Of a stretch of 64,000 nucleotides of DNA, positions 15,211-35,173 are shown piece after piece; position 1 is the stretch's first letter; every line of letters begins with the position of its first letter. Both the position numbers and the translations under genes were made by a program. The notes under the pieces were generated by a model, which saw only the letters and a list, made by a program, of their open reading frames with translations, did no database searches and had not been told where the DNA came from. Source of the DNA: Saprospiraceae bacterium (GTDB taxonomy: Bacteria; Bacteroidota; Bacteroidia; Chitinophagales; Saprospiraceae); the NCBI GenBank assembly GCA_022448955.1, contig JAKVCU010000006.1, positions 276 through 64,275 on the forward strand. Direction: 5' to 3'.

Positions 15211-15399
15211 ATGAAGTTGGAAGAAGGAAAAGACTATTATATAGAAGATGGCATGTACGTCTTCACGGAACATTTCTTGCGAAAGCGAGCTTATTGTTGT
15301 GAAAATGGCTGTCGCCACTGTCCTTATGGTTTCAAAAAAATCACAACTCCTTCTTCTCCTCCGGATACTCAATCCGAACGTGATGAACAGACTTCATAA
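15211..15399 (+). CDS. DUF5522-like small Cys-rich protein
   Basis: The YCCENGCRHCPYGF motif is the hallmark of this small family. The unconserved tail overlaps the convergent gene by 59 nt. Confidence 0.7.
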   Translation: MKLEEGKDYYIEDGMYVFTEHFLRKRAYCCENGCRHCPYGFKKITTPSSPPDTQSERDEQTS

Positions 15400-17431
15400 T
15401 CTGCTTGAATACTTGTTTACATTCTTCTAATTCCTGAAAGCTCATCTGAGAATCTTCCAATTGCCCTTGTGTAATTTTGCCTGCGATGATTTTATCAATA
15501 AAATCATTGAGCTCTTTTTCAGAAGGGTTATTTAAACTTTTACATGCTGCTTCGATAGAATCAGCCATCATTAAAATAGTTTCTTCTTTAGTAACAGGCC
15601 TTGGTCCAGGATATCTAAATAGATCTTCGTCAAACTCAGTTCCAGGGTTTTCTTTTATATAGGAGCGGTAAAAGAACTCTGTTCGCGTAGTTCCATGATG
15701 TGTTCTGATAAAATCAATCAATACATTAGGTAGACGATGTTTTTTGGCCATAGCCACCCCTTCTTCTACATGTCCAATAATTATCTTCGCGCTATCCAAG
15801 AATGATATCTCATCGTGAGGGTTTTTCCCTGATTGGTTTTCTATAAAAAACGCTGGTTTGGTCGTTTTACCAACATCATGATAAAGTGCCGCCACTTTTA
15901 CTAAAAGTGGGTTCGCTCCAATACGCTGAGCCGCTCCTTCCGCCAAATTTGCCACTTGTAAGGAATGTTGTAATGTACCTGGCGCTTTCAAAGCTAATTC
16001 TCTAAGCAAAGGCCTATTCATATCCGACAACTCCATCAAAGAAATCGAAGAAGTAAATCCAAAGAACCGCTCCAATAAGGGAATAAGTGGATAGGCCAAA
16101 AGCGTCAAAAATACATTGATAAATATCCAAGTGTAAACATTCCAATCAATAGTAGAAAGCTTACCTTCTTTAATTAAAGAAAGGCCGAGATAAGCCAAAC
16201 TATATGCTAAAAAAATATACAATATAGAATAAAAAAAACGCGACCAATCACGTGTATCCACATCACTTAATAATACAACAATACCAGCCAAGATGTGCAA
16301 AAAGGTAAATTCATACCCCAAAGAAGATAAAAAACTAGCAATAAGCACTACGACAATATGAGTGAATAAAGCTAAGCGCGCATCATAGAATGTTTTAATT
16401 ACAATTGGAACAATACAAAAAGGAATTAAGTAAGCACTCAATACATCCACACTTTCTACAACATATACTAAATAGCTGTAAACGACAATCCATAAAAACA
16501 CAAAAAGTAATTTCCAAAAACTAGCATATATTTCCCTGGCATACAACTGTAAATACATTAAATAAACCCCAATAATAAGAGAAGTTAGCAAAATATAGCC
16601 AAAAAGTACACCGTAAATAGATCGTTGTGCACTTACTTCTACTTGATACTGTTCCTTAAGAGAAACTAATTTCTGATAAGCTTCATCTGTTATTACATCT
16701 TCTCTTTGAATAATTAGTTCACCTTTTCGAACCATCCCTGAAGAGGTCGAAAGGTTCGCCAACTCACGACTTTTAAACTGTTGTGTTAAAGAATCACTGT
16801 AGACAATATTGGGTTGAATAACATTTTCAAGGATAGGAAATAAAAACTCTGGTTCTCTCAAACGACTGTATGGCAAAGAATCACTTAACTGCTCCTTAGC
16901 GGCTTCTTCATTCAATAGATTGCTAAGCGTTCTTTGTTCTTGAAGGTTACCTCGTTGAACTACAATGACAAAATCTCTTCCTTCGGAAGAATGCGACGAA
17001 GCCAACTGTACAATCCCTCTTTTGAATAAACGGTCTAGGAAAGCTAGACCATAATTTTGGTACTTTTTAGGATTTCGTGCTACATCAGGGAACTGATTAG
17101 CTGAATCATCTTGCTCTAATTGTGTTCGGAATTCTTCGTTAAATAGTCTTTTACTTTCCTTTTCTCTATCAAATTGTACTTCATAATGTGGTGAGAAGTT
17201 GTCAAGTACAGCTTGTCTTTCTCGTTCTATATTTTCTGCTGGTTTGCGAATCGCAAAATCGAATGGTGCATCCAAATCACTATATCGCCAGCTTTGTCCC
17301 TTTTCAAATTCATAAGTAAACTGTACATGATTAGGAAACAAAAAACTGATAAAAGCAATAACACCAATTACCATGAGAATTTTAAAAATCCCTGGCAATT
17401 GTTCAATAGCATTTCTTACTCGTGTATTCAT
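15341..17431 (-). CDS. 7TM receptor with intracellular HD/HDIG phosphohydrolase domain
   Basis: N-terminal extracellular domain, seven TM helices, then QHSLQVANL ... YHDVGK ... HHGT HD-domain motifs. 696 aa. Confidence 0.88.
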   Translation of the reverse strand: MNTRVRNAIEQLPGIFKILMVIGVIAFISFLFPNHVQFTYEFEKGQSWRYSDLDAPFDFAIRKPAENIERERQAVLDNFSPHYEVQFDREKESKRLFNEEFRTQLEQDDSANQFPDVARNPKKYQNYGLAFLDRLFKRGIVQLASSHSSEGRDFVIVVQRGNLQEQRTLSNLLNEEAAKEQLSDSLPYSRLREPEFLFPILENVIQPNIVYSDSLTQQFKSRELANLSTSSGMVRKGELIIQREDVITDEAYQKLVSLKEQYQVEVSAQRSIYGVLFGYILLTSLIIGVYLMYLQLYAREIYASFWKLLFVFLWIVVYSYLVYVVESVDVLSAYLIPFCIVPIVIKTFYDARLALFTHIVVVLIASFLSSLGYEFTFLHILAGIVVLLSDVDTRDWSRFFYSILYIFLAYSLAYLGLSLIKEGKLSTIDWNVYTWIFINVFLTLLAYPLIPLLERFFGFTSSISLMELSDMNRPLLRELALKAPGTLQHSLQVANLAEGAAQRIGANPLLVKVAALYHDVGKTTKPAFFIENQSGKNPHDEISFLDSAKIIIGHVEEGVAMAKKHRLPNVLIDFIRTHHGTTRTEFFYRSYIKENPGTEFDEDLFRYPGPRPVTKEETILMMADSIEAACKSLNNPSEKELNDFIDKIIAGKITQGQLEDSQMSFQELEECKQVFKQIMKSVHHVRIEYPEEKKEL

Positions 17432-17602
17432 ATCTCAAATATAAGGCATGAAGTATAAACTCAATGAACAAGTTCCTTTATAAATATCCAATGTTCACCA
17501 GCTTCTTTTTTACTTCATTCCAAAAAATAAAAATTTTTACGCTTCTACCCAACCCTTTTTATTAAACGCTCTGTCTATGCGAGTAAGTTTATCTAAATAA
17601 AA

Positions 17603-17812
17603 ATGAAGGTTATGAAAATTTCCAAGTCCTTACTTCAAGCCATAGCACTAGGTGCTACACTTGGTATTGCAGCGACATCTTGCAGTCTTTTAGAAGATGA
17701 GATCAAAATCACTCCTAATGCAACAGATGAAACTTGTGAAAAAGAAAATAAAGGTCGGAATGATAACAATACCCATCATTGGGATAATTGCCCGGCCTGT
17801 GGAATGGGTTAA
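17603..17812 (+). CDS. RiPP precursor peptide candidate, ChrA-like, with lipoprotein-type signal peptide
   Basis: 69 aa: MKVMKISK + hydrophobic LLQAIALGATLGIAATS-C + ...NNTHHWDNCPACGMG-stop. It lies 69 nt upstream of the DUF692 gene on the same strand. Confidence 0.7.
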   Translation: MKVMKISKSLLQAIALGATLGIAATSCSLLEDEIKITPNATDETCEKENKGRNDNNTHHWDNCPACGMG

Positions 17813-17881
17813 ACATGACTAGTCGTAAAACAATCTTTATATCCAGTATCCAGAAACTTACGGCTAAACGAACTTTCTCCT

Positions 17882-19021
17882 ATGACCAAAATTCATTCCA
17901 CACTTGCTTGTAATTTAGACAAAAACATTCTTATGGCCGCCCTACCGCTGCTAGCAGCAGAAAAGGTAGAGGCCATAGAATGGTCTTTTGATGCCCTATT
18001 CAAAACGCGTAATATCCCCAATTGGTTTGTTGATTTGCTTAGGACCTATAGTCAAGGCCAAGCGCTTATAGGCCACGGTATTTTCTTTTCTCTCTTCTCC
18101 GGTCGATGGTCACCCGAACAACAACAGTGGCTTAATCATTTAAAAAGAATAACAAAGGAGTTCAATTTCGAACACATTACAGAACATTTTGGCTTTATGA
18201 CTGGCAAAAACTTTCATCAAGGTGCGCCGATTAGCGTACCTTATAATGAAAGAACACTTGCCCTTGGGCAGGATCGCCTAAAAAGAATGTACGAAGCATG
18301 TCAGCGACCAGTGGGGCTTGAAAACTTAGCTATTGCTTATTCGACTGCTGAGGTTCAGCAACATGGCGAATTTCTGGAAGCACTCCTCTCTCCTATTAAT
18401 GGTTTTATCATTTTAGACTTACATAATTTTTATTGCCATCTCCACAATTTTGAAGAAAACTTTGACCGACTAATTCAGTCTTATCCTGTTCACATGGTTA
18501 GAGAAATTCATATTTCTGGAGGATCATGGCAGAATTCAGAATGGTTCGATGACAAAAAAGTTCGAAGGGATACGCATGATGATGGTGTTCCAGAAATAGT
18601 TTTTGAGTTATTGGAAAAAGTCATTCCGCTTTGCCCCAATTTAAAATATGTAGTACTAGAACAACTAGGTACTGGCTTAAAAACAGATGGACAGAAAACA
18701 AGATTTCAGAAAGATTTCTTAAGAATGGACGAGATCGTTCAACCATCTATTCCTCATAAGAAAACTCAGAATGATTTTTTGCCTAAGCAGAAAATTAAAT
18801 TCGATGAAATTGTAGAAGATGAAGTTTTTCATCAACAGCAAATGCAGCTTTCCGCCATTTTAGAAAATGCGGTAGACGCAGCATCCGCAGAAAAACTCTT
18901 AATGAATTCAGCTTTAGCCAAAACAGATTGGAAAGTCGAAGAATGGAAGACACATATGCTAGATGCAGTTATTCAAATTGCACAGCAATGGAAAAAAGGA
19001 TTCCAATCCCCAGCAAATTAG
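17882..19021 (+). CDS. DUF692 / multinuclear non-haem iron oxidase (MNIO) with about 93-aa C-terminal extension
   Basis: GHGIFFSL, EHITEHFGF, LENLA, ILDLHN, EIHISGG, RRDTHDD and VVLEQ follow the metal-ligand pattern of the DUF692 TIM barrel. Residues ~287-379 are additional and look helical. Confidence 0.8.
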   Translation: MTKIHSTLACNLDKNILMAALPLLAAEKVEAIEWSFDALFKTRNIPNWFVDLLRTYSQGQALIGHGIFFSLFSGRWSPEQQQWLNHLKRITKEFNFEHITEHFGFMTGKNFHQGAPISVPYNERTLALGQDRLKRMYEACQRPVGLENLAIAYSTAEVQQHGEFLEALLSPINGFIILDLHNFYCHLHNFEENFDRLIQSYPVHMVREIHISGGSWQNSEWFDDKKVRRDTHDDGVPEIVFELLEKVIPLCPNLKYVVLEQLGTGLKTDGQKTRFQKDFLRMDEIVQPSIPHKKTQNDFLPKQKIKFDEIVEDEVFHQQQMQLSAILENAVDAASAEKLLMNSALAKTDWKVEEWKTHMLDAVIQIAQQWKKGFQSPAN

Positions 19022-19039
19022 GGATTGGAATATTATGTT

Positions 19040-20068
19040 TTAATTCTTTTTTCTCTTTCTAGTTTTTGTTGTTTTTGTTCGGCTTCTGGTCACAGTATTA
19101 CCTTTCTTCTTAGCTTTCGTCGTCGTTGTCCTTTTCCTTGTAGTCGTTGTTTTTCCTCTATTTGTTTTACTAACTGTTGTAGTTTTTTTTCTAGCTCCAA
19201 CAGTGCCATTATTCTTCTTACCAACAGTCGTGCTTGTTTTGGTTACCGTTGTTCTTCTCGGTGTGCTTGTTTTGGTCACGGTTGTTCCCCGAGCTGTAGT
19301 TCTTACTCTTGTGGTAGATTTGGCTACTACAACTCTGGAAGTTGTTCTTCGAGGTGTATAAACACGATGCGCTCTTACCACTCTTGGTGTACGTACCACA
19401 TGATATCTTGGACGATAAACTACTGTTCTTGGGTAAAACACTCGCCATGGACGTGGACGCCATGGACGCCACCATCTAGGATAAACACCCCATCCAAATG
19501 GGGAAACCCAAACTCGATATCCTGGACGGTAAATAAAACGTACACTTGGCCACAACCAAACATTCACCACTACTCTCCTAAATTCTAAATCTGCACTTGG
19601 TCCACCATTTCCACCACTTGCCCCTTCATCAAATGGTTCAACGAAGTAGTCTTCACCATATAGGGTCTCATCTCCTATAATTTGCAAGACCGCTTGTTCA
19701 TCACCTGTTTTTTCTATGGCTATTACAGCAATATCTTGCGATTCACTTTTACTAAAAGGTACTTGCAGTGCAATAGCATGCAAATTACCTTCCATGTTAT
19801 CTACAACTCTTACGTAATCAATCTCTCCATCTTCGTTTAGATCAAGATTATTGATATTATTACCTTCTCTATTTAATGCCTCTTCAAAGGCTTCTAATGA
19901 GGATGCCTGTTTAAATAGAGTCAAAGCCCCTTCTAAGCAAAAATTGTCTCCTAACAAACCAGTACTATCTTTAACAATATCTTGTCCTTGTGCAACTGCA
20001 TTTTGAACAGAAAAAATAGAGGCTAATAAAATCAATGCATTCAACAACAACTTTTGTTTCATATTCAA
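19040..20068 (-). CDS. secreted protein with EF-hand-like loop and extremely basic W/R/P-rich then T/K/R-rich tail
   Basis: Signal peptide (cleavage near AVAQG), DLNEDGEIDYVR loop, then WPSVRFIYRPGYRVWVSPFGWGVYPRWWRPWRPRPWRVFYPR, then about 130 aa made almost only of T, R, K, V, S. The antisense ORF 19025-19588 is a mirror artefact. Confidence 0.7.
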   Translation of the reverse strand: MNMKQKLLLNALILLASIFSVQNAVAQGQDIVKDSTGLLGDNFCLEGALTLFKQASSLEAFEEALNREGNNINNLDLNEDGEIDYVRVVDNMEGNLHAIALQVPFSKSESQDIAVIAIEKTGDEQAVLQIIGDETLYGEDYFVEPFDEGASGGNGGPSADLEFRRVVVNVWLWPSVRFIYRPGYRVWVSPFGWGVYPRWWRPWRPRPWRVFYPRTVVYRPRYHVVRTPRVVRAHRVYTPRRTTSRVVVAKSTTRVRTTARGTTVTKTSTPRRTTVTKTSTTVGKKNNGTVGARKKTTTVSKTNRGKTTTTRKRTTTTKAKKKGNTVTRSRTKTTKTRKRKKN

Positions 20069-20300: not shown

Positions 20301-21722
20301 ATGACTAGACAGAGTAGGCTTATTCTGTGCATTGGTGTGCTTATGCACTTCAGTTATTTCCTAGATGCTCAATCCTTCTACTTTGGAGCAGACCTTTCCT
20401 ATATCAATGAAATGGAGGATTGTGGAGTTATCTATAAAGAAAACCAATCTCCAAAGGATCCTTTCCAAATTTTTGCTGATCATAATTGTAACTTAGTCCG
20501 TTTGAGACTCTGGCATACGCCCGCTTGGTACGATGATTTGAACAGCGGAGAGCGCTATTCTGATTTCACTGACGTGAAAAGGAGTATCGCAAGAGCCAAA
20601 GAGCAAGGGATGGAAGTCTTACTTGATTTCCACCTATCAGATAATTGGGCAGATCCAGGCAAGCAAATCGTTCCAGCTGCTTGGCTAGATGTAGTCAATG
20701 ATTTGCCTAAATTAAAAGATTCCTTATACGCTTATATCACCTCTACTCTTCTAGCATTGCATCAAGAGGATCTCCTTCCAGAAATGGTGCAAATTGGAAA
20801 CGAAACTAATAAAGGAATTTTACTTTCTCCAGAAGATAATACCAACTCAGGAATCGACTGGAACCGCAATAGCCAGTTATTCAATAGAGCTATTCAAGCA
20901 ATAGAAGTTGTTGAACTTATAACGCAGAAAGATATCAAGATCGCCATTCATGTTGCAGGCCCCGATGCAGGAGACTGGTTAATCAATGGGTTTATTGAAA
21001 ATGGAGTAACCGATTTTGAGGTCATTGGAATTTCCTACTATTGGGCATGGCACCAACCTACTACTATTGAACAAACTGGTCAAATTATAGGGGACTTACG
21101 TACTTCTTTGCCAGATAAAGAGCTTATCATATTTGAAACTGGATATATCTGGACTACAGAATTTAACGATAATGCCAATAATATAATCAATGCTACTCAT
21201 CCTGATTATTCCCCCCCAAGCCCACAAGCACAAAAACAATGGTTAATAGATCTTACCACTGAGGTGATAGAACACGGAGGAAGTGGTGTCATCTATTGGG
21301 AACCAGCATGGGTATCTTCTAGTTGTTGGACCCAATGGGGGCAGGGGTCTCACCAAGAACATGCTACCTTCTTTGATTTTGACAATAATTTAATCGAAGA
21401 TGGAGGTATTTCATGGATGGAAGAAAGTTATCCAACCTCAATCAACACCATTCTCAAAATAGAATCCGTAAGTATATTTCTCAACCAAAGTGCTCAACAG
21501 CTTATCATCAAAGATCCTAAGATGGAAATAGATACTTCAAGTATACTTCAAATTAATAACCTAAACGGACAGACTCTATTTTCTTCATCGATTAACTCAT
21601 TAAATAAATCTGGAAACGAATATCGAATTCGGTGGCCCGAACTGCCAACTGCTATTTATGTAGTAAGCATTTGGAGTCAAAAAAAGGAAGTCTACAGCAA
21701 AAAGATTAACTATATCAAATAA
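20301..21722 (+). CDS. GH53 endo-beta-1,4-galactanase with T9SS C-terminal sorting domain
   Basis: FGADLSYINEMEDCG ... NLVRLRLWHTP ... VQIGNE ... ISYYWAWH match GH53. The last ~80 aa (LNGQTLF...AIYVVSIW...) look like a type A T9SS CTD. Confidence 0.85.
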   Translation: MTRQSRLILCIGVLMHFSYFLDAQSFYFGADLSYINEMEDCGVIYKENQSPKDPFQIFADHNCNLVRLRLWHTPAWYDDLNSGERYSDFTDVKRSIARAKEQGMEVLLDFHLSDNWADPGKQIVPAAWLDVVNDLPKLKDSLYAYITSTLLALHQEDLLPEMVQIGNETNKGILLSPEDNTNSGIDWNRNSQLFNRAIQAIEVVELITQKDIKIAIHVAGPDAGDWLINGFIENGVTDFEVIGISYYWAWHQPTTIEQTGQIIGDLRTSLPDKELIIFETGYIWTTEFNDNANNIINATHPDYSPPSPQAQKQWLIDLTTEVIEHGGSGVIYWEPAWVSSSCWTQWGQGSHQEHATFFDFDNNLIEDGGISWMEESYPTSINTILKIESVSIFLNQSAQQLIIKDPKMEIDTSSILQINNLNGQTLFSSSINSLNKSGNEYRIRWPELPTAIYVVSIWSQKKEVYSKKINYIK

Positions 21723-21792
21723 ACAATTTTTAAGGAAAGCCATTGCTTTCCGGCGTATCAACTTTAAAAAATGAAAAAATATTCTTGCTAGT

Positions 21793-24741
21793 ATGAAACG
21801 ATTGAATACATTTTTATTCTCCATGCTCTTAGCTTTGGCACCGACCTTTTTGCTTGGCCAGCGAGCCATTACAGGTACGGTTACAGATGCAGACACTAAA
21901 GAGCCATTAATTGGAGCAAACATATTAATTCAAGGTACAACCATAGGTACCATTACTGATTTCGATGGCAATTTTTCTCTTGATGTTCCTGAAGGAACAA
22001 CTGCACTTTTAATTAGCTATACTGGATATGCAGACATCGTTTATCCGCTTGGCGCAGAAAATGTGCTGAAGGTTGAATTAACTGCTGGTGAGCTACTAGA
22101 TGAAGTAGTCATCATCGGTTATGGTACAGTAAAAAAAGAAGATGCTACAGGTGCTATTCAAACCATCAATACTAAAGACTTTAATAAAGGAGCAATCAAT
22201 ACTCCTCAGGAGTTATTGGTCGGTAAAGTGGCTGGAGTTCAAATCACGCAAGGGGCTGCACCAGGTGATGGTGCTGCTATTCGTATTCGTGGAGGTTCTT
22301 CTCTTGGTGCCTCTAACGACCCCCTAATCGTTATTGATGGAATACCCATTGATAATGGAGGGATATCAGGTGCTAGAAACCCATTAAATGCGATTAATCC
22401 TAATGATATCGCGTCCTTTAATATTCTAAAAGATGCGTCTGCGACAGCTATTTATGGTTCTAGAGCCTCAAATGGAGTCATCATTATTACCACTAAGAAA
22501 GGGAAAACAGGCAAAGGTGTAAAAGTAGATTATGCAGGTAATGTATCTATCAGTGAAAATGTTAGATTCTTAGATGTATTAAATGCGGATGAATACAGAT
22601 CATTAGTCGCCGAACAATTCCCAGATTCATTTGAACCTGATTCGTTATTAGGTAATGCTAATACTAATTGGCAAGATCAAATTTATCAAACAGCTATTGG
22701 ACAAGACCACAATCTTTCTTTCTCTGGAGGAATTAGTGACTTTTTACCATACCGTGTATCTTTAGGTTATACCAATCGTAATGGTGTACTTAAAACAGAT
22801 GAATTCCAAAGAACAACGCTTGGTGTCAACTTAAATCCTTCATTTTTAGACAACCGCCTTCAAATAAATTTGGGTATTAAAGGAAGTTTTTCACAAAACC
22901 AATTTGCGAACCGTGGCGCCATAGGATCTGCAGCTCGCTTCGACCCTACTCAAGAAGTGTTGGATCCAGGCAATGCCTTCGGTGGCTATTTCACCTGGAC
23001 ACAAGAGGGTACTGGAAATCCAAACAGTTTAGCCGCTCCAAACCCTTTAGCTTTGTTAGAGTTACGGGATGACCAGTCGGAAGTAGCACGTTATATCATG
23101 AATGCTTCTATTGATTATCGTTTTGCATTCTTACCAGAATTAAGGGCTAATCTTAGCTTAGGGTATGATTATGCTAGAGGTGAAGGAACAGTCGTTGTTC
23201 CTAATTTTGCTTCATTTGCATTCGATGCAGTAAATGGTGGTGGTCAGAATTCAAGATACGATCAAGAAAAGACCAACAAGTTGTTAGACTTTTACCTAAA
23301 TTATGTAAAAGAGTTTGGCAATCAGAAAATTGATATCATGGCAGGGTATTCTTGGCAAAGATTCTTCTTTGACAACTATTCCTTCAATACCAATGCTGCA
23401 GGGACACCCACTCCTGACATCACTACCGAGTTTTTTGATTCTGGCGAGCTGTTTTTATTATCTCTTTTTGGCCGTTTGAATTATACCTTGGATGATAAGT
23501 ACTTATTTACTTTCACCCTTCGCCGTGATGGTTCATCTCGTTTCTCTCCTGATACCCGTTGGGGTCTCTTTCCAGCAGCAGCTTTCGCTTGGAAAATTCT
23601 TGAGAATCAAAATGGTATCTTGAATAACTTAAAACTCAGGCTAGGATATGGTGTAACTGGTCAGCAAGATATTGGCGGATATTACCTATACCTTCCTACA
23701 TATACGATAGGCCAACCTACCGCAGCTTATCCTTTCGGAAATGATTTTGTACAAACACTACGCCCTGAAGAGTATGATGCAGATATCAAATGGGAAGAAA
23801 CCACAACCTACAATCTCGGTTTAGATTTCAGTTTACTGAATGATCGAATTTCTGGCTCTGTTGAATATTATATAAGACAAACAAACGATCTGCTATTAGG
23901 TATTCCTATTCCAGCGGGTACCAACCTCTCTAACTTCCTCATTACAAATATTGGAGATTTAGAAAATAGAGGGGTAGAGCTTACGCTAAATGCAATTCCA
24001 GTACAAGTTGAAAACTATAGATGGGAAGTAGGCTTTAACTTTACAAGAAATGAAAACAAAATCACTAAACTATTAGCTACGGATGATCCAGAATTCCAAG
24101 GAAACCGCGTTGGAGGTATATCAGGTGGTTTAGGTAATACGGTTCAAATTAATAGTGTAGGTTTCCCCGCTTCTAGTTACTTCTTGTACGAGCAGGTTTA
24201 TGACGAAACAGGTACACCAATTGAAGGATTATATGTTGATCGTAATGGTGATGGCGTTGTGAATCCAGACGATTTATATCGTACCGAAAATCCAGCACCA
24301 GATTACTTTTTAGGAATAAACTCTACTTTTGATTATAAAGGATTAAGCTTAAGTTTCTCTGCTAGAGCTAATCTAGGTAATCATATCTACAACAATGTAT
24401 GGTCTGATTTCGGAACCTATGCTAGTTTATATAACTCCGCTGGTTTCTGGTCAAATGTACACGCTAGTGTAAATGATATCCGTTTCCAAAACCCACAATA
24501 CTTAAGTGACCACTTCTTGCAAGATGGTTCTTTTATAAGATTTGATTATATCACTCTTGCCTATCAATTTGGTTCATTATTCAAAAAATCAATCAAAAAC
24601 TTAGGCATCTCAGCAACGGTTCAGAATCCATTTGTGATTACAAACTATGAAGGTATTGATCCTGAGATTTTTGGAGGTATTGATAATAACATTTATCCAA
24701 GAGCAAGAACTTTTGTATTTGGATTAAACGCTAGTTTCTAA
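21793..24741 (+). CDS. SusC/RagA family TonB-linked outer membrane protein
   Basis: CarboxypepD_reg-like N-terminus (ITGTVTDADTKEPLIGANILIQGT), TonB plug (ASATAIYGSRASNGVIIITTKKG), 982 aa, C-terminal F. Confidence 0.95.
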   Translation: MKRLNTFLFSMLLALAPTFLLGQRAITGTVTDADTKEPLIGANILIQGTTIGTITDFDGNFSLDVPEGTTALLISYTGYADIVYPLGAENVLKVELTAGELLDEVVIIGYGTVKKEDATGAIQTINTKDFNKGAINTPQELLVGKVAGVQITQGAAPGDGAAIRIRGGSSLGASNDPLIVIDGIPIDNGGISGARNPLNAINPNDIASFNILKDASATAIYGSRASNGVIIITTKKGKTGKGVKVDYAGNVSISENVRFLDVLNADEYRSLVAEQFPDSFEPDSLLGNANTNWQDQIYQTAIGQDHNLSFSGGISDFLPYRVSLGYTNRNGVLKTDEFQRTTLGVNLNPSFLDNRLQINLGIKGSFSQNQFANRGAIGSAARFDPTQEVLDPGNAFGGYFTWTQEGTGNPNSLAAPNPLALLELRDDQSEVARYIMNASIDYRFAFLPELRANLSLGYDYARGEGTVVVPNFASFAFDAVNGGGQNSRYDQEKTNKLLDFYLNYVKEFGNQKIDIMAGYSWQRFFFDNYSFNTNAAGTPTPDITTEFFDSGELFLLSLFGRLNYTLDDKYLFTFTLRRDGSSRFSPDTRWGLFPAAAFAWKILENQNGILNNLKLRLGYGVTGQQDIGGYYLYLPTYTIGQPTAAYPFGNDFVQTLRPEEYDADIKWEETTTYNLGLDFSLLNDRISGSVEYYIRQTNDLLLGIPIPAGTNLSNFLITNIGDLENRGVELTLNAIPVQVENYRWEVGFNFTRNENKITKLLATDDPEFQGNRVGGISGGLGNTVQINSVGFPASSYFLYEQVYDETGTPIEGLYVDRNGDGVVNPDDLYRTENPAPDYFLGINSTFDYKGLSLSFSARANLGNHIYNNVWSDFGTYASLYNSAGFWSNVHASVNDIRFQNPQYLSDHFLQDGSFIRFDYITLAYQFGSLFKKSIKNLGISATVQNPFVITNYEGIDPEIFGGIDNNIYPRARTFVFGLNASF

Positions 24742-24771
24742 AATTAAGATGCAAAGAAAAATCTAAATAAA

Positions 24772-26982
24772 ATGAATATCAAATTATATTTCCGCTCCCT
24801 CTTTATCCTACTGGGCATGACTGCAAGCTTTACTGCTTGTTTCAATGATTTGGATACGACCCCCATCGATCCAGATTCTGTGACAGCGGCGAATGTTTAT
24901 GATGATCCTGCCGCTTACCGTCAGGTTTTAGCAAAATTGTATGCTGGTCTGGCTGTCTCTGGCCAACAAGGCCCTTCAGGCCAAGCTGATATTGAAGGTA
25001 TTGATGAGGGCTTTGGCCAATATCTTAGAGGTTTGTGGTATCACCAACAATTACCTACGGACGAGGCGGTTATCGGTTGGAATGACCAAACGATTAAGGA
25101 TTTTCACGAACAAGATTGGGATGCTAATGATCCTTTTATTTATGCATTTTACAGTCGTATCTTCTACCAAATTTCTGTTTGTAACGAATTTTTACGCGAA
25201 ACAACAGAAGATAAATTGAATGAAAGAGGTGTTGACGATGCATTAAAAACAGAAATCCAAGGATTTCGTGCAGAAGCACGTTTCTTACGTGCACTGAGTT
25301 ATTACCACGCTTTGGATCATTTCCGCAATGTTCCTTTTGTAACTGAAGAAGATCGAGTAGGTTCTTTCTTCCCTGAGCAAATTCAGGCACCTCAGTTATT
25401 TGATTTCTTAATCACAGAACTTACAGAAATCGAAGGACAGCTACCTACACCAAAGGCTAATGAATATGGTCGTGCAGACCAAGCTGCTATTTGGATGCTT
25501 TTAGCAAAGCTTTACTTGAATGCTGAGGTATACGCTGGTAAAAATGAATATGCGAATTGTTTGACACAAATCGAAAAAGTAATCAATGCTGGTTATGAGT
25601 TAGATGAAGAATATGAACACCTATTTATGGCAGATAATGACCTTTCAAACGAAGTGATTTTTAGTATTCCTTTCGATGGTATCAATACCAAAACTTGGGG
25701 AGGTACAACATTCATCCTTCGTGCCGGCATTGGTGGATCAATGAATGATAATGCACCTACAGATTATGGTGTAGCTGATGGTTGGGGTGGAACACGTGTT
25801 ACCTCTTCATTGGTAGGTAAATACCCAGCTGTGGCAAGTGAACAAGGAGGAGGTCTAATTGTGCTACCTAATTCAGGGGAAGATTATACGCAAGCATATG
25901 TACCAGGATCATTTGTACAATGGAACCCTGCCAATGCACCTGCATTGACTTCACCAAATGAAGACGATGTTTTTGAGGGATATATCTATTTTGAAGAAGC
26001 AGATCAAAAGTTCATCATCACGAGACAACGTTCATTTGCCAACAACTTTGGAGATGATGGCCAAGATGGTACTTTAGAACCAAACGGTGACCAAATTGAT
26101 GTGGCTGAGCCAGGTGTTTATTACCTAAATGCAGATTTAACCAACCTAACTTATACGCTTGAAAAAGTAGAATTCGGAATCATCGGTTCTGCAACGGCTA
26201 ATGGTTGGGATAGTGATATTGACATGGTTTACAGCCCAGAAGATACTGCTTGGGTTTACGAAGGCCTATTAAGCGCTGGTGAGATGAAATTCCGTGCAAA
26301 TGATGATTGGGCAATCAATTATGGAGACGACGGCGCAGATGCTATCTTAGAATTAGATGGTGGAAACATTATTGTTGAATCCACTGGAAATTACCGTGTC
26401 AAATTCTTCACAGCAAGTGCAGACTATACTTACTCTTTAGAATTGACTAGTTCTGATAAAAGAGCCAACTTTTATACGGAAGGCCAAACTCTAGAAATTG
26501 CAGATATTGCACAATTCACGGAAGGATATGCTTCGCAAAAATATAAGAATGTAACTAGAGATGGCTCTAGAGGCAGTGATCTAACACATGTTGATATTGA
26601 CTTCCCGATGTGGCGCTTAGCAGATGCCTATTTAATGTATGCAGAAGCACATCTTAGAGGTGGTGGTGGTGATGCCAATACTGCTGTAGATTATATCAAT
26701 ATGGTGAGGTTAAGAGCTTATGGCGACGAATCTGGACAAATTACAACTAACGATCTAAATCTAGATTTCATTCTGGATGAAAGAGCAAGAGAACTATACT
26801 GGGAAGCACATCGTCGTCAAGATTTAGTTCGTTTTGGTCAATTCTCTGATGGATCATACGTATGGCCTTGGAAAGGTGGAGTAGTAGACGGTGCAGCTGT
26901 AGAGGAACACTTTGATGTGTACCCTATTCCATCTGCTGATATTGGAGCTAATCCAAGTCTAACTCAAAACACTGGTTATTAA
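24772..26982 (+). CDS. SusD/RagB family lipoprotein with internal insertion of two SusE/F-like domains
   Basis: Lipobox FTAC. The SusD N-terminal half and C-terminal end (FPMWRLADAYLMYAEA, LDERARELYWEAHRRQDLVRFG, YPIP) are interrupted by residues ~375-559, which contain GIIGSATANGWDSD...KFRANDDWAINYG. 736 aa. Confidence 0.9.
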   Translation: MNIKLYFRSLFILLGMTASFTACFNDLDTTPIDPDSVTAANVYDDPAAYRQVLAKLYAGLAVSGQQGPSGQADIEGIDEGFGQYLRGLWYHQQLPTDEAVIGWNDQTIKDFHEQDWDANDPFIYAFYSRIFYQISVCNEFLRETTEDKLNERGVDDALKTEIQGFRAEARFLRALSYYHALDHFRNVPFVTEEDRVGSFFPEQIQAPQLFDFLITELTEIEGQLPTPKANEYGRADQAAIWMLLAKLYLNAEVYAGKNEYANCLTQIEKVINAGYELDEEYEHLFMADNDLSNEVIFSIPFDGINTKTWGGTTFILRAGIGGSMNDNAPTDYGVADGWGGTRVTSSLVGKYPAVASEQGGGLIVLPNSGEDYTQAYVPGSFVQWNPANAPALTSPNEDDVFEGYIYFEEADQKFIITRQRSFANNFGDDGQDGTLEPNGDQIDVAEPGVYYLNADLTNLTYTLEKVEFGIIGSATANGWDSDIDMVYSPEDTAWVYEGLLSAGEMKFRANDDWAINYGDDGADAILELDGGNIIVESTGNYRVKFFTASADYTYSLELTSSDKRANFYTEGQTLEIADIAQFTEGYASQKYKNVTRDGSRGSDLTHVDIDFPMWRLADAYLMYAEAHLRGGGGDANTAVDYINMVRLRAYGDESGQITTNDLNLDFILDERARELYWEAHRRQDLVRFGQFSDGSYVWPWKGGVVDGAAVEEHFDVYPIPSADIGANPSLTQNTGY

Positions 26983-27009
26983 TCCTAATTTGAAAAAAGA
27001 AAATGTGTC

Positions 27010-28059
27010 ATGTTAAATAAAAATACTTTATCACTTCTTGTTGCTCTAAGCATGCTATTTTTTGCGTGTGAAGAAAAAACATTTGACCCTGTAGTCGAAT
27101 TAGTGACCGCCCCAGAGCTTACAGCTCCTACTACAGGTACTGGATTTGTCTTAGCAGAAGACGCAGTAGAACAAAATCTAACCACATTTACTTGGACTGC
27201 GGCAGATTTTGGCTATTCTGCAGGTATTACTTATCGAATCGAATTTGATATCGTAGGAAATAATTTCGCTGAAGCAATCACACTAGGTTCTTCGAACGAT
27301 CTAAGCTTTACGAATCTTTCTATTGGAAAGATGAATAATATTCTTTTAGCAAAAGGCTTACCATTTGGATTTGACAATGAACTAGAAGTTAGGGTTTGCG
27401 CCAGCGTAAGTACCCAGGTAGAAACCATGTGCTCTGAACCAATCACCATTACCGTTAACCCATTTGCTGCAGAAGTAGAATATCCCTTTTTAACTGTTCC
27501 TGGTGACTATCAAGGTTGGAACCCTGCTGATGAATCGAGGGCAATATTTTCAAGAAGAAGTGACGATATTTATACCGGTTTTATCTACTTCCAGATTGAT
27601 AATGCTGTTTACAAATTTGTTCAGGGCCTTAGCTGGGATGTCAACTGGGGGGATATAGAACCAGATGGAGTACTAGACCCACAAGGGCTTGGAAATGATA
27701 TTATGATTCCAGACGGTGCAGGTATGTATTTACTTACTTGCGACCTCAATACGTTAACCCATGCTGCCCAGAAAACCAATTGGGGCCTACTTGGCGATGC
27801 CACGCCCAACGGCTGGGATACCGATGTAGATTTCGAATGGGATACTGAAAGGGAAGTGCTAAGTGTTACCTTAGACCTAAATCCTGGATCAATTAAATTC
27901 CGTGCAAATGATACGGATGATATCAGCTTTGGCGATGACTTCACAAATGGAACACTGGAGTTTGATGGTGACAATATTCCAATTACAGAAGCAGGAAACT
28001 ACACCATCGATCTCATTTTGATGACAGCAGATTATTCTTACACCATTACGAAAAATTAA
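27010..28059 (+). CDS. SusE-like outer membrane lipoprotein (SusE N-domain + two SusE/F-like beta-sandwich domains)
   Basis: Lipobox FFAC and TTFTWTAADFGYSAGITYRIEFD (SusE N-domain style), followed by PGDYQGWNP... and GLLGDATPNGWDTD...KFRANDTDDISFG. Confidence 0.85.
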   Translation: MLNKNTLSLLVALSMLFFACEEKTFDPVVELVTAPELTAPTTGTGFVLAEDAVEQNLTTFTWTAADFGYSAGITYRIEFDIVGNNFAEAITLGSSNDLSFTNLSIGKMNNILLAKGLPFGFDNELEVRVCASVSTQVETMCSEPITITVNPFAAEVEYPFLTVPGDYQGWNPADESRAIFSRRSDDIYTGFIYFQIDNAVYKFVQGLSWDVNWGDIEPDGVLDPQGLGNDIMIPDGAGMYLLTCDLNTLTHAAQKTNWGLLGDATPNGWDTDVDFEWDTEREVLSVTLDLNPGSIKFRANDTDDISFGDDFTNGTLEFDGDNIPITEAGNYTIDLILMTADYSYTITKN

Positions 28060-28165
28060 ATACTAGATATCAACTAGGCTATATACATGGGGTAAATCCT
28101 TGATTTCACCCTAGGATACAATACATCCAAATTAATTACGATTCAACTTTTTAAAAATTACTATT

Positions 28166-29935
28166 ATGTTAAAAAAATTACTCTATCTATTTACAATTAC
28201 TTTATTAACCGCAGCTATTGCTCAAGCTCAATCTGTGGGTATCATCGGTTCTGCTACTCCTGGAGGATGGGATGAGGATACAGATTTGACACAAGATGCT
28301 GATAACCCTGATATATGGACAATCTCTGGACTAGCCCTTAGTACGGGTGAAACTAAATTCCGTCAAGATGATGACTGGACAGTCAACTGGGGTGCTACCT
28401 CATTCCCTAATGGTACAGGTGAGCAGGATGGTCCTAACATCCCTACTGCTGGTGGTACCTATGATATTACTTTTAATTCGGCTACAGCTGAATATACTTT
28501 CACAGAAACTTCTCCCACTTATGGGTCTATAGGTCTCATCGGTACAGGTACTTCTATCGGAAACTTCGATGAAGATGTCGATATGACTGCAATCGACACT
28601 ATTCCATGGGTTTGGACATTAGAAACAACATTAGTTGCTGGTGATGTAAAATTCCGTGCTGATGATGATTGGACCAACAACTGGGGAGCAATCGATTGGC
28701 CATCAGGTGTTGGCACACCAGGTGGTGATAATATTCCAAGTGTACCAGGTGATTATCTAGTAACATTCAACTCTGCTACGGGTGAATACTCTTTCGAAAC
28801 TTTAGTTCCACTTTACAATACGATCGGTGTTATCGGTGATGCTACACCAGGTGGATGGGATGCTGATACAGATCTAGAACAAAATCCTAATAATCCTTCT
28901 TTATGGTCTGCTAATATTACTTTCACTGATGGTGAAGCAAAATTCCGTGCTGAAGATGACTGGGCAGTCAACTGGGGTGCAGAAGATTTCCCTATGGGTA
29001 CGGCTGTTTTAGAAGGTCCAAATATCCCTGTTGTTGCTGGCGAATACAATGTTCAGTTCAACTCCGCTACAGGTGAATACAACTTTGCCCCACCAATTTC
29101 AATCTTCGAAACAGTAGGAATTATTGGTGATGGTACTGGTCTTGGTTGGGATGAAGATATCGATATGTATGTTGATCCAGCACAGCCAGATCAATGGACA
29201 GTTCAGTTGCACCTAACAACAGGTGAAGTAAAATTCCGCGCAAATAATGCTTGGGATGTCAACTGGGGTGACGATGGTTTCCCTACAGGTACAGCTACTG
29301 AAGGTGGACCAAATATTCCTGTTTTTGAAGGTGATTGGGAAATTACTTTTAATGCAACAACTGGAGTCTATTCTTTCACTCCTGTATCAATCGGTATCAT
29401 CGGTACAGCTACTGCAGGTGGTTGGGATTCTGATACAGATATGGCTGCTAGTAATACAGCGGGAAGTGTTTGGTCGCTTGATATCGATTTGATGGATGGT
29501 GAAGCAAAATTCCGTCAAAATGATGATTGGGCAATCAACTGGGGTGAAGCTACTTTCCCTACTGGTGCAGGTACACAAGATGGTCCTAATATCCCTGTAA
29601 CAGCAGGATCGTACAATGTTAGCTTAAATACAGCTACTGGTGATTATGCATTTAATGGTTCAAATAATACTTTAAATCTATTGGACGGAAGTGCAATCCA
29701 GGTATTTCCTAATCCAACTCGCGAATTACTAAATATCAATATTGAAGCAGTTGAATTACAGAACGATGTAACTGTTCGCGTTCTTAACTTAGAAGGACAA
29801 GTAATCAGCGTTCAGCAATTTAATCAGTTAGAATCATTAAACATTGATGTTTCTAACTATGCTGCAGGTGTATATATTCTTCAGTTATCTAATAACGAAT
29901 ACATACTTGGTAAGCGTTTTTCAGTTATTAAATAA
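28166..29935 (+). CDS. secreted protein with five tandem SusE/F-like domains and T9SS C-terminal sorting domain
   Basis: Signal peptide, five ~92-98-aa repeats each with IIG.ATPGGWD...W...GE.KFR..DDW..NWG...GPNIP...Y...FN.ATGEY.F, then VFPNPT...GVYILQL (T9SS CTD). Confidence 0.88.
   Translation: MLKKLLYLFTITLLTAAIAQAQSVGIIGSATPGGWDEDTDLTQDADNPDIWTISGLALSTGETKFRQDDDWTVNWGATSFPNGTGEQDGPNIPTAGGTYDITFNSATAEYTFTETSPTYGSIGLIGTGTSIGNFDEDVDMTAIDTIPWVWTLETTLVAGDVKFRADDDWTNNWGAIDWPSGVGTPGGDNIPSVPGDYLVTFNSATGEYSFETLVPLYNTIGVIGDATPGGWDADTDLEQNPNNPSLWSANITFTDGEAKFRAEDDWAVNWGAEDFPMGTAVLEGPNIPVVAGEYNVQFNSATGEYNFAPPISIFETVGIIGDGTGLGWDEDIDMYVDPAQPDQWTVQLHLTTGEVKFRANNAWDVNWGDDGFPTGTATEGGPNIPVFEGDWEITFNATTGVYSFTPVSIGIIGTATAGGWDSDTDMAASNTAGSVWSLDIDLMDGEAKFRQNDDWAINWGEATFPTGAGTQDGPNIPVTAGSYNVSLNTATGDYAFNGSNNTLNLLDGSAIQVFPNPTRELLNINIEAVELQNDVTVRVLNLEGQVISVQQFNQLESLNIDVSNYAAGVYILQLSNNEYILGKRFSVIK
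28232..29653 (+). repeat. five tandem coding repeats, period about 276-294 nt
   Basis: Repeat units start at residues S23, S121, T219, T316 and S408 of the 28166 ORF. Confidence 0.85.
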
Positions 29936-30712: not shown

Positions 30713-31957
30713 ATGGACAGACCTGTTCAACAATCATTAAAAACGAAACGCAACTTAAAATGGATATTTTATAGTATTCTATGTGTTGGAGCTCTTTATG
30801 CAAGTTGGCAATTTTTAGGTAATCAATTAAAAACAAGCATTGATCCTAAAGATTTTATTACTGCTAAAGTGGAAAAAGGTAATATTGAAAGTACCATTTC
30901 AGCCGCAGGCGAAGTCATCCCTATTTACGAACAAGTATTGAGTAGTCCTATTAAAGCTACTATCCAAGAAGTATTAAAGCCGATTGGCACGAAGGTGCGA
31001 AAAGGTGAAGCTATATTGGTGTTGGACAAAAGCGAATCTTTGTTAGAGTTTGAAAAACTTACAGATCAATTAGAATTAAGAAAAAATGAAATCACCCGAC
31101 TGAAATTAAATCTCAAAAAAGAGTTATTCGATCTAGAAATTTCAGATTCTATCAAAGCACTGAATGTCCAACGCCTAACTGCCGATAGAGATAATACCAA
31201 ATATCTTTTAGATATCGGTGGCGCTACACAAGAACAAATGGATGAGGCCGAATTGCAATTAAAAATTGCCTTACTAGAGAAAAAACAATTAGACCACAGC
31301 CTGAAAACTAAGAAACAATCTACCGAAACAGAAATCTTCGAAAAAGACTTACAAGCCAAGATTCAAGGCCATGCTATTACAGAATTGGAGCAAAAACTCC
31401 AAAAAGCAGACATCAAAGCACAAAGATCAGGTGTACTCACTTGGGTAAATGACCGAATAGGATTGCCCGTAAATCCAGGAGAAACATTAGCTAGATTAGC
31501 TGACCTAGGATTTTTTAAAGTAATGGGGAGTATATCCGATATTTATGCGGATAAAATCAAAATCGGACAGCGTGCTATTGTAACTGTAAATGACCAGCCT
31601 TTAAGTGGAACGATCAATAATATCCGCCCCACAGTAGAAAACAATATCATTACCTTCGAAGTACAACTCGATCAATCTAATCATGAAGCTTTACGTCCCA
31701 ATATGAAAGTGGAAGTATATATCATCTTGGCTAGTAAATCGGAAACACTTAGAATTGCTAATGGTCCTGCTTTTAATGGTAAAGCAAAACAAAAGTTATT
31801 CCTACTTCAAGATGGAAGAGCTATTCAAAAAGAAGTCCAAATGGGACTCAGCAGCTTCGAATATGTAGAAGTACTTAGCGAACTACGTCTCGGAGATGAG
31901 ATCATCATCTCTGACATGAAACAATACGAACACTTATCTGAGATCACAATAAAATAA
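30713..31957 (+). CDS. HlyD-family efflux periplasmic adaptor
   Basis: N-terminal TM helix, long coiled-coil section, and barrel-sandwich/beta-barrel C-terminal motifs. 414 aa. Confidence 0.85.
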   Translation: MDRPVQQSLKTKRNLKWIFYSILCVGALYASWQFLGNQLKTSIDPKDFITAKVEKGNIESTISAAGEVIPIYEQVLSSPIKATIQEVLKPIGTKVRKGEAILVLDKSESLLEFEKLTDQLELRKNEITRLKLNLKKELFDLEISDSIKALNVQRLTADRDNTKYLLDIGGATQEQMDEAELQLKIALLEKKQLDHSLKTKKQSTETEIFEKDLQAKIQGHAITELEQKLQKADIKAQRSGVLTWVNDRIGLPVNPGETLARLADLGFFKVMGSISDIYADKIKIGQRAIVTVNDQPLSGTINNIRPTVENNIITFEVQLDQSNHEALRPNMKVEVYIILASKSETLRIANGPAFNGKAKQKLFLLQDGRAIQKEVQMGLSSFEYVEVLSELRLGDEIIISDMKQYEHLSEITIK

Positions 31958-31962
31958 AAGAT

Positions 31963-32628
31963 ATGATTAAGTTATCCCAAATTGAAAAGGTTTATACCAC
32001 CAAAACAATCGAAACCTTAGCCCTCAATAATATCAACTTGGATATTATGAAAGGAGAATTTGTATCTATCATGGGGCCTTCGGGCTGTGGTAAAAGTACC
32101 CTCTTAAACATTATGGGTTTATTAGATGATCCTTCTACGGGCCAAGTAGAAATTAATGGAGAGTCATTTGCTAGATTTTCAGACAAACAGCTAGCAAAAT
32201 TTAGAAATAATACCATTGGCTTCATCTTTCAAAGTTATCACCTGATTAATGATTTATCGGTAATTGATAATGTAGAGCTGCCCTTGCTTTACAGAAATGT
32301 ATCTAGTAGCGAAAGAAGAAAATTGGCTTCAGAAGCATTAGAAAAAGTAGGTCTAGCCAATAGAATGAAACACTTCCCAAGTCAGTTATCAGGTGGTCAA
32401 AAGCAAAGAGTGGCGATTGCAAGAGCAATCGTTGGACGGCCACAAATTATCTTGGCCGATGAGCCTACTGGAAACCTTGATAGTGTGATGGGTAATGAAG
32501 TGATGGACATTTTGCTTAAGCTGAATGAACAAGAGGATACCACTATTGTGATGGTTACGCACGATGAAAGCATGGCACAGAAAACGCACCGATTAATTCG
32601 CTTATTTGACGGAAGTCAAGTAAACTAA
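31963..32628 (+). CDS. ABC transporter ATP-binding protein (MacB/LolD type)
   Basis: Walker A GPSGCGKST, Q-loop, signature LSGGQKQRVAIARA, Walker B ILADEPTGNLD. Confidence 0.93.
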   Translation: MIKLSQIEKVYTTKTIETLALNNINLDIMKGEFVSIMGPSGCGKSTLLNIMGLLDDPSTGQVEINGESFARFSDKQLAKFRNNTIGFIFQSYHLINDLSVIDNVELPLLYRNVSSSERRKLASEALEKVGLANRMKHFPSQLSGGQKQRVAIARAIVGRPQIILADEPTGNLDSVMGNEVMDILLKLNEQEDTTIVMVTHDESMAQKTHRLIRLFDGSQVN

Positions 32629-32662
32629 ACCCTTTTCCCGATCTTAAATAATCCGACGTATC

Positions 32663-33907: not shown

Positions 33908-33917
33908 AATTTCAATT

Positions 33918-35105: not shown

Positions 35106-35110
35106 GCTTT

Positions 35111-35169
35111 GTTTTTGGTTGCTGGTTCTTAGTTTGCAAACCACCAACTAAAATCCAACAACTAAAAAC
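35111..35169. repeat. long imperfect AT-rich inverted repeat between permease and response regulator genes
   Basis: gtttttggttgctggttcttagtttg pairs with the complement of ccaccaactaaaatccaacaactaaaaac (21 of 26 positions) around a 4-nt loop. Confidence 0.5.
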
Positions 35170-35173
35170 TATT

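Follow-up and report, generated by a model that had tools for sequence, protein, structure and literature searches.

A probable DybA/DybH-type 'DAG-RiPP' locus in a Saprospiraceae bacterium

Identity of the locus

We analysed a stretch of 64,000 nucleotides of DNA from a Saprospiraceae bacterium (GCA_022448955.1, contig JAKVCU010000006.1, positions 276-64,275), which is called the window below and whose own numbering is used for all coordinates. It contains two adjacent genes on the forward strand, one for the precursor of a peptide that is made by the ribosome and modified after translation (RiPP) and one for a multinuclear non-haem iron-dependent oxidase (MNIO, DUF692). In our judgement this pair is very probably a 'DAG-RiPP' locus of the DybA/DybH type described by Chen et al. 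(bioRxiv 2025, PNAS 2026; PMC12636315, PMC13056109). The membership of both genes in their families, the fold of the enzyme, its ligand-type residues, the lipobox of the precursor and the conservation of the module were established here; the chemistry, the independence from a partner protein and the lipidation we infer from characterised homologues. The literature of 2025-2026 covers the families of the enzyme and the precursor, their two-gene architecture, the chemistry and the lipoprotein route. In addition, the window enzyme is identical to MCH2081132.1 from a Saprospiraceae bacterium metagenome-assembled genome (MAG), which appears in Supplementary Table 2 of PMC12636315, the list of ChrH-subfamily MNIOs that its authors used for a similarity network. 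The locus is therefore already known and is not presented here as new. The window peptide was not found in the machine-read text of the precursor table of the preprint, which reading errors may explain.

According to PMC13056109, the ChrH subfamily consists of a Chryseobacterium cluster and a cluster of 'other Bacteroidota', and all of its members have a C-terminal helical bundle of ~7.8 kDa, which in Cyanobacteria is a separate and required protein, MelHc. Throughout the subfamily the conserved motif is CPxCGxG, which in DybA is the site of a -4 Da modification (PMC13056109). The 'other Bacteroidota' precursors are shorter, with one more invariant Cys and CPxCGxG at their end, and a precursor plus an MNIO with no conserved partner is the normal architecture of that clade (PMC13056109). 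DybH alone, both in cells and in vitro, converts DybA into a -4 Da product that has a macrocycle, a hydantoin, two thiohemiaminals and a free, unmethylated thiol, and it leaves the third Cys of DybA unmodified; ChsH and HymH give the same -4 Da unmethylated product (PMC13056109). The additional Cys belongs to a lipobox, and experiments in E. coli showed that the signal of DybA directs its triacylation at this Cys; the peptide was also found in outer-membrane vesicles, and the products were named 'DAG-RiPPs' (PMC13056109). The same paper reports that ChrI is dispensable even for ChrH and that ArlAH yields methylated as well as unmethylated products; what causes S-methylation in ChrAH and ArlAH is not understood (PMC13056109).

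In order to place the window genes among these groups, we compared their profile scores to those of Dyadobacter and Hymenobacter relatives. The window precursor matched NF050125, the NCBIfam model of this precursor type, above its cut-off (59.3-59.5 bits against 40, E = 4.7e-16). The Dyadobacter and Hymenobacter precursors match the same model, with 59-67 bits for those of Dyadobacter. On the ChrH model NF050165 the window enzyme scored 371 bits, the Dyadobacter orthologues of DybH 385-398 and a Hymenobacter homologue 404, all of them less than 600, which is the equivalog cut-off.

The original prediction, which was made from the sequence alone, had taken the locus for a stripped-down chryseobasin cluster with an S-methylated product. 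A chryseobasin (ChrA/ChrH) cluster proper would give an S-methylated macrocycle (+10 Da), with S-adenosylmethionine (SAM) as methyl donor, on a peptide that is simply secreted, and we consider it unlikely that the window encodes one. The CPACGMG motif is identical to that of chryseobasin, the best NCBIfam match of the enzyme is the ChrH model (370.9 bits, E = 6e-111), ChrH was reported to be SAM-dependent, and the mixed products of ArlAH indicate that methylation is not confined to Chryseobacterium. However, the enzyme falls below the ChrH cut-off, and the peptide reached 16.1 bits on the ChrA model NF050124, below its cut-off of 50, in an alignment over the C-terminal 24 residues only. ChrA is also longer, has no lipobox Cys and carries a signal for signal peptidase I (SPI), whereas the window peptide has a lipobox. 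The chr operon further contains ChrI (DUF1772), ChrE (ribulose-phosphate 3-epimerase) and ChrP (M42 peptidase) (Ayikpoe et al. 2023, PMC10214503), but a Pfam scan of the open reading frames (ORFs) with 120 aa or more across the whole window found no DUF1772, M42 peptidase or ribulose-phosphate epimerase. Finally, the three tested Bacteroidota members of the clade from outside Chryseobacterium (DybH, ChsH and HymH) all gave the -4 Da unmethylated congener, which makes an S-methylated chryseobasin product unlikely for the window as well.

What remains in common with ChrA/ChrH(/ChrI) is an MNIO subfamily with a C-terminal helical domain, the CPACGMG at the C-terminus of the precursor and, as predicted for the window from its homologues, the core chemistry of a macrocycle, an imidazolidinedione and thio(hemi)aminals. 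The locus is more fittingly described as a typical member of the DybA/DybH-type clade, and those of its features that could be examined all agree with the published account of that clade. Its minimal cluster and the absence of a partner are defining published features of that family and not special to the window, and a missing partner is no peculiarity since ChrI is not considered necessary even for ChrH. The peculiarities of the window are local ones: its core is longer and acidic, and it contains one additional Cys as well as an HHW stretch.

The precursor peptide

Reading of the sequence and its ORFs agreed with the original prediction on the positions and strand of the two genes, the gap between them, the CPACGMG end of the peptide and the flanking genes. 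The longest form of the precursor ORF has 69 codons and ends ...THHWDNCPACGMG-TAA, and its C-terminus can also be written out as ...NNTHHWDNCPACGMG-TAA. The spacer to the MNIO gene, which lies on the same strand, is exactly 69 nt (17813-17881). The likelier start is the second in-frame ATG at 17612, which gives 66 aa with the N-terminus MKISKSLLQAI. We preferred this start because homologues begin MK(I/L/V)SKSLLQA, with the NF050125 match beginning at residue 4 of the 69-aa form, and because 66 aa is also the length in NCBI record MCH2081131.1 and in the calls of most gene callers. MCH2081131.1, an identical 66-aa protein, comes from a Saprospiraceae MAG.

The original prediction had overlooked that the N-terminus is a lipoprotein-type signal peptide for signal peptidase II (SPII). 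GATLGIAATSC fits a rule in the style of PROSITE PS51257; its Cys is at position 24 (27 in the 69-aa form), and two Lys fall within the first seven residues. Cys24 is predicted to be the N-terminal residue of a mature peptide of 43 aa, where it would carry S-diacylglyceryl and N-acyl groups; this role is assigned because that of the lipobox Cys is known from DybA (PMC13056109). With such a signal on the precursor, the product would be a lipid-anchored 'DAG-RiPP'. The predicted mature peptide, CSLLEDEIKITPNATDETCEKENKGRNDNNTHHWDNCPACGMG, has 43 residues and is acidic (calculated pI, isoelectric point, 4.6), and a THHW stretch lies in its core just before CPACGMG. The C-terminal LysC fragment GRNDNNTHHWDNCPACGMG has a calculated [M+H]+ of 2098.80 when unmodified and of 2094.77 for -4H.

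It could be argued that the chemistry is DybH-like and that the peptide is nevertheless unlipidated in its native host, being exported after SPI cleavage or retained, with Cys24 serving in a disulfide or as a second modification site. The evidence for the lipobox is rule-based, it was in E. coli and not in a native Bacteroidota host that DybA was found to be lipidated, and the further Cys of the window peptide could pair with Cys24. Against this, the spacing of the Cys is canonical, it follows an n-region rich in K and a hydrophobic h-region, and the residues at -1 to -3 are small; the arrangement recurs in 49 of the 52 precursor-like ORFs discussed below although the rest of the core varies freely, and DybH did not modify the third Cys of its substrate. 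We hold an unlipidated peptide to be very improbable, and lipidation of the DybA kind is the reading that we retain.

The MNIO enzyme

The Pfam profile check placed the 379-aa ORF in DUF692, as had been proposed: it matched PF05114 (MbnB_TglH_ChrH) over residues 52-260 with 99.8 bits (cut-off 25, E = 2e-28), and NF050165 assigned it to the ChrH subfamily. The NF050165 alignment runs the full length, from residues 13-371 of the enzyme against positions 11-361 of the 363 in the model, and includes the C-terminal domain. Scores on the BufB model (84.6 bits, cut-off 310) and the HvfB model (66.8 bits, cut-off 360) were both below their cut-offs. The enzyme has 1925 homologues at E <= 1e-10.

The DUF692 motifs listed by the original prediction are all present, and the His, Asp and Glu residues in them are invariant in an alignment of 36 sequences. 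The invariant set of the barrel comprises H65, H98, E101, H102, E147, D179, H181, N182, H210, D230, H232 and E260, and the LDLHN, HxxGGSW, DxHD and LE motifs align with the same motifs of TglH (phmmer). We infer from these alignments that the invariant His, Asp, Glu and Asn residues are metal ligands that would bind two or three iron ions, and any assignment of single residues to sites is likewise an interpretation of the sequence.

An AlphaFold2 model built on the 36 homologues had a predicted local distance difference test score (pLDDT) of 86.9 and a predicted template-modelling score (pTM) of 0.89. The closest solved folds in the PDB (Foldseek) were those of TglH, 8hci (E = 3.5e-13) and 8hi7, and of MbnB, 7tcr, 7fc0 and 7dz9, and by sequence (phmmer) the sole PDB matches were TglH 8hci and the DUF692 protein 3bww. 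The enzyme is without a signal peptide: its N-terminus, MTKIHSTLACNLD, is the first barrel strand of the model (E5-10) and aligns with the starts of the homologues. It is therefore taken to be cytoplasmic.

The earlier account of the domain content was right for the TIM barrel of about 285 residues and left the C-terminal ~90-95 residues unexplained; in the model these form the helical bundle of the ChrH family. Invariant residues of the bundle are Q320, L323, L327, S343, L345, W350, W355 and W370. When the C-terminal 90 residues were searched alone against 1.84 billion representative proteins, 46 matches were found, most of them short proteins that start at a conserved internal Met (M(D/E/K)RIV..) and are probably fragments at contig ends.

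Survey of homologous loci

We then compared the locus to its homologues, taking one genome per species, which gave 45 MNIO loci (numbered with an L here) from Saprospiraceae, Chitinophagales, Ferruginibacter, Ginsengibacter, Fluviicola, Dyadobacter, Solirubrum and others. In 42-43 of the 45, one or two precursor ORFs lie immediately upstream of the MNIO on the same strand. They share a three-part layout, in which the signal MK(I/L)SK..LLQA comes first, the lipobox Cys second and CPxCGxG at the C-terminus. Upstream of the MNIO, the homologous loci and the window together contain 52 precursor-like ORFs; 49 of these satisfied the lipobox rule, and the CPxCGxG motif was kept with a few variants. 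The core between the lipobox Cys and the motif varies freely in sequence and in length (27-63 residues). Close metagenomic variants of the window peptide differ mainly at a few positions in the middle of the core, and none has lost a Cys or the CPACGMG apart from a single outlier (P0134, from a contig of 947 nt).

This conservation in the loci and the metagenomic variants argues that the small ORF is a real gene and that the conserved unit is the precursor plus the MNIO. Beyond the level of the genus, the 45 loci have no further flanking gene family in common. The expectations that the small ORF would be conserved beside homologous enzymes, and that the unit would lack a partner, protease, methyltransferase and transporter of its own, were both upheld by this survey. 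Local synteny with the window was seen only in its closest relative, L049 (67% identity). We considered the neighbours of the module in the window as possible parts of the system and rejected them: the 7TM-HD, DUF6580, DUF5522, convergent 342-aa and GH53/SusC genes do not recur in the 45 loci, except for SusC-like matches in six Dyadobacter loci.

A last objection to the precursor would be that the small ORF is fortuitous or non-functional and that the MNIO acts on another substrate. Three loci in Chitinophagales and Bacteroidota MAGs (L007, L011 and L015), whose MNIOs are 58-59% identical to the window enzyme, might be cited in its support, as no CPxCGxG precursor was found within ~4 kb on either side of them, relaxed patterns included; they may be orphan MNIOs or have their precursors encoded elsewhere. 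But the window peptide passes the curated hidden Markov model (HMM) NF050125, it stands beside the enzyme in nearly all surveyed loci across several Bacteroidota lineages, and its metagenomic variants, P0134 apart, keep the residues that matter to this reading. The fortuitous-ORF explanation is effectively refuted, and the small ORF is treated below as the DybA-type precursor.

Two further observations were made on the precursors of the survey. Tandem pairs of precursors precede one MNIO in nine loci (L005, L008, L012, L014, L020, L024, L031, L033 and L045), and the window has a single one. Variant motifs occur in the tandem loci (CSSCGMG in L020, CIACGMG in L024, CAACGMG in L005, CLDCGRG in L045 and CPGCGLG in L031), and the single precursor of L001 has CPPCGMG.

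Extra cysteines in Saprospiraceae precursors

Between the lipobox and CPxCGxG, precursors of the Saprospiraceae lineage contain an acidic Cys-rich stretch of the form C-x3-C-x3-C (C-x4-C-x3-C in L049), with examples such as TCDETCDLNCD, TCDETCDESCD, VCEDETCDGEC, KCTTECPEKC and QCTSECGENC. The comparison covered 17720-17788 of the window, L049:3819-4016, L051:892-1089, L052:3788-3988 and the precursors of L018, L031, L036 and L045. The window peptide keeps only one Cys of this stretch (TDETCEKEN), followed by THHW, and this extra Cys appears to be a degenerate form of the C-x3-C-x3-C motif of the other Saprospiraceae precursors. The main text of the DybAH paper makes no mention of an acidic Cys stretch (PMC13056109).

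One may speculate that the Cys and His residues of the stretch, together with the thiol that the MNIO would leave free, define a subgroup of membrane-tethered lipopeptides that are metal-binding or redox-active. We give this idea little probability. Another possibility is that the MNIO modifies the extra Cys residues too. If a metal-binding or redox module were real, it would be the first functional handle on this RiPP family.

Proposed pathway

From the characterised homologues, the following course would be expected for the window locus. The 66-aa precursor would be made in the cytoplasm, where the MNIO, a TIM barrel of the multinuclear iron type to which the helical bundle is fused and which acts without a partner, would recognise the C-terminal CPACGMG. 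With O2 and its iron cluster, it would carry out a four-electron oxidation in which the two Cys are linked into a macrocycle, two thiohemiaminals form and the backbone is rearranged to a hydantoin (imidazolidinedione). The net change would be -4 Da (-4.03), with one thiol most likely free and not S-methylated. The SPII signal would then route the modified peptide through the Sec pathway, Lgt would add diacylglycerol to Cys24, LspA would remove the 23-residue signal and Lnt would N-acylate the new N-terminus. The predicted end product is a triacylated, acidic peptide of 43 residues, anchored in a membrane and bearing the macrocycle at its free C-terminal end. Its location would probably be the outer membrane, and it may be surface-exposed or present in outer-membrane vesicles.

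Several points weigh against this assignment to the DybA/DybH type. The chemistry and the lipidation are carried over from homologues that are ~55% identical, and the placement in the clade comes from HMM scores and the Dyadobacter congeners and not from a tree. Methylation in the native host is possible, given that its cause in ChrAH and ArlAH is not understood. The core has 43 residues as opposed to ~28 in DybA, with the extra Cys and the HHW stretch, and the support for the lipobox consists of a rule-based test. The acidic C-S-L-L-E-D-E after the lipobox fits the 'KDD' signature of surface export poorly, and the localisation is uncertain for this reason.

Comparison to known systems

The nearest characterised systems are DybAH, ChsAH and HymAH of Dyadobacter crusticola, Chitinophaga sancti and Hymenobacter gelipurpurascens, respectively. 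As in the window, the precursor stands directly before the MNIO with no partner, the MNIO is a TIM barrel with a C-terminal helical bundle, and the precursor starts MKISK..LLQA.. and continues with a lipobox Cys and a variable hydrophilic core to the end CP(A/G)CG(M/L)G. The window also resembles about 40% of DybH-type clusters in having a SusC/TonB-type gene nearby, its SusC gene being 2.8 kb downstream. The TonB receptor plug, with a frequency of 0.41, is the only notable co-occurrence near DybH-type clusters (PMC12636315); we put no weight on the nearby SusC gene because such genes are very common in Bacteroidota. The window differs from these systems in its host, which is of another family (Saprospiraceae), in its enzyme, which is 53-57% identical to the Dyadobacter enzymes, and in its mature core of 43 aa, as compared to 27-29 aa in Dyadobacter species. 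Its core is also more acidic (pI 4.6), with the extra internal Cys and THHW before the motif, and its intergenic gap of 69 nt is longer than the typical 8-22 nt.

MelA1/MelH/MelHc of a melainabacterium has the same C-terminal CPACGMG modification (-4 Da) and a helical domain that is required for activity. There, however, the helical domain comes as a polypeptide of its own, unlike the fused one of the window enzyme, and what is modified is a secreted TPR protein of 34 kDa that carries an SPI signal, not a small lipoprotein. The lipoprotein-type bufferins or oxazolins (for example NedA/NedBC of Neisseria dentiae) resemble the window product in being MNIO-modified, Cys-containing RiPPs with an SPII signal for triacylation. 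They belong to a different MNIO subfamily and need a partner (NedC, BufC), whereas no DUF2063-type partner was found beside the window enzyme. Their chemistry, of thiooxazole or oxazolone-thioamide type for copper binding, and their EGKCG motif are different as well.

Neighbouring genes and feature coordinates

Upstream of the precursor lies a divergent 7TM-HD gene (15341..17431, -; PF07697, PF07698, PF01966). A 62-aa ORF of the DUF5522 family, which contains a CxxC and is called by public gene callers, is found at 15211-15399 (+) with a 59-nt overlap with the 3' end of the 7TM-HD gene, to which it is convergent. On the other side, a convergent ORF of 342 codons (19040..20068, -) ends 18 nt past the MNIO stop. 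It has a signal peptide and no Pfam or NCBIfam match, and it contains an EF-hand-like loop (DLNEDGEIDY), a stretch rich in Trp, Arg, Pro and Tyr (WRPWRPRPWRVFYPR) and a long tail rich in Thr, Lys and Arg. L049 has a gene of 61% identity in the same place; beside the MNIO in the other lineages, the ORF is absent.

Just downstream of this ORF is a polysaccharide-utilisation-type locus at 20301-29935. Its first gene encodes a GH53 endo-galactanase with a weak match to a sorting domain of the type IX secretion system (T9SS), and it is followed by SusC (21793-24741), SusD fused to a SusE/F-like domain (24772-26982), SusE (27010-28059) and a SusF/E-like protein with a T9SS C-terminal sorting domain (28166-29935). 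The nearest methyltransferase and transporter genes, for an RNA methyltransferase (37836-38777) and a MacB-type ATP-binding cassette (ABC) transporter (30713-35105), are 12-19 kb from the module, and neither adjoins the module in the other surveyed loci, for which flanks of 4 kb were compared. The region 30713-37839, 12 kb from the module, encodes an HlyD-type adaptor, an ABC ATPase and two permeases of the MacB/FtsX type, and then a sigma-54-dependent response regulator and a histidine kinase.

Regulatory signals were sought around the module. The inverted repeat between the convergent genes is a probable bidirectional terminator, as judged by a pattern match only. A promoter scan gave promoter-like matches that were no commoner than in shuffled sequence, the sigma-70 consensus being inappropriate for Bacteroidota. 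By eye, TAAGTTTA at 17584-17591 comes close to the -7 motif of Bacteroidota. No RNA element was indicated by an Rfam scan of 17300-19200 or by folding of the 69-nt spacer (z = -1.0). The coordinates of the features are given in Table 1.

Table 1 Features of the DybA/DybH-type locus in the window. Positions are those of the window; column Strand denotes the coding strand and column Basis the evidence for each feature.
Feature	Position	Strand	Basis
Precursor gene, DybA-type, 'chryseobasin-related MNIO class RiPP peptide'	17603 or 17612..17812	+	ORF; NF050125; NCBI MCH2081131.1
Lipoprotein SPII-type signal peptide, MKISKSLLQAIALGATLGIAATS	17612..17680	+	Lys-containing n-region, hydrophobic h-region, lipobox A-T-S before the Cys
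Lipobox Cys codon TGC, Cys24 of the 66-aa form	17681..17683	+	Read from the sequence; Cys conserved in essentially all homologous precursors
Extra mid-core Cys (..TDETCEKEN..)	17735..17737	+	Sequence; compared to L049, L051, L052, L018, L036, L031 and L045
CPACGMG, C-terminal motif and MNIO modification site (stop codon 17810-17812)	17789..17809	+	Sequence; site assigned from DybA
MNIO (DUF692) maturase gene, DybH-type, ChrH subfamily, 379 aa	17882..19021	+	PF05114; NF050165; NCBI MCH2081132.1
TIM-barrel catalytic domain, residues 1-286	17882..18739	+	AlphaFold2 model, Foldseek, phmmer, invariant residues
Linker, residues 287-313	18740..18820	+	DSSP on the model, no regular structure; poor conservation, consensus mostly 'x'
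C-terminal three-helix bundle, helices 314-329, 333-341 and 357-371	18821..19018	+	Model; hallmark extra domain of the ChrH subfamily
Inverted repeat, 13-bp perfect stem	19000..19031		Consensus scan; spans the MNIO stop between the convergent genes, T-rich on both sides

Conclusions

NCBIfam already models this type of precursor (NF050125), and the window provides a clean Saprospiraceae example of it. The public labels of the two proteins, 'hypothetical protein' and 'DUF692 domain-containing protein', could be upgraded. With its longer and acidic core, its extra Cys and its His-His pair, the window peptide illustrates how freely the core that separates lipid anchor and macrocycle can vary. Natural variants of this kind could help to design tests of function for these widespread lipidated macrocycles.

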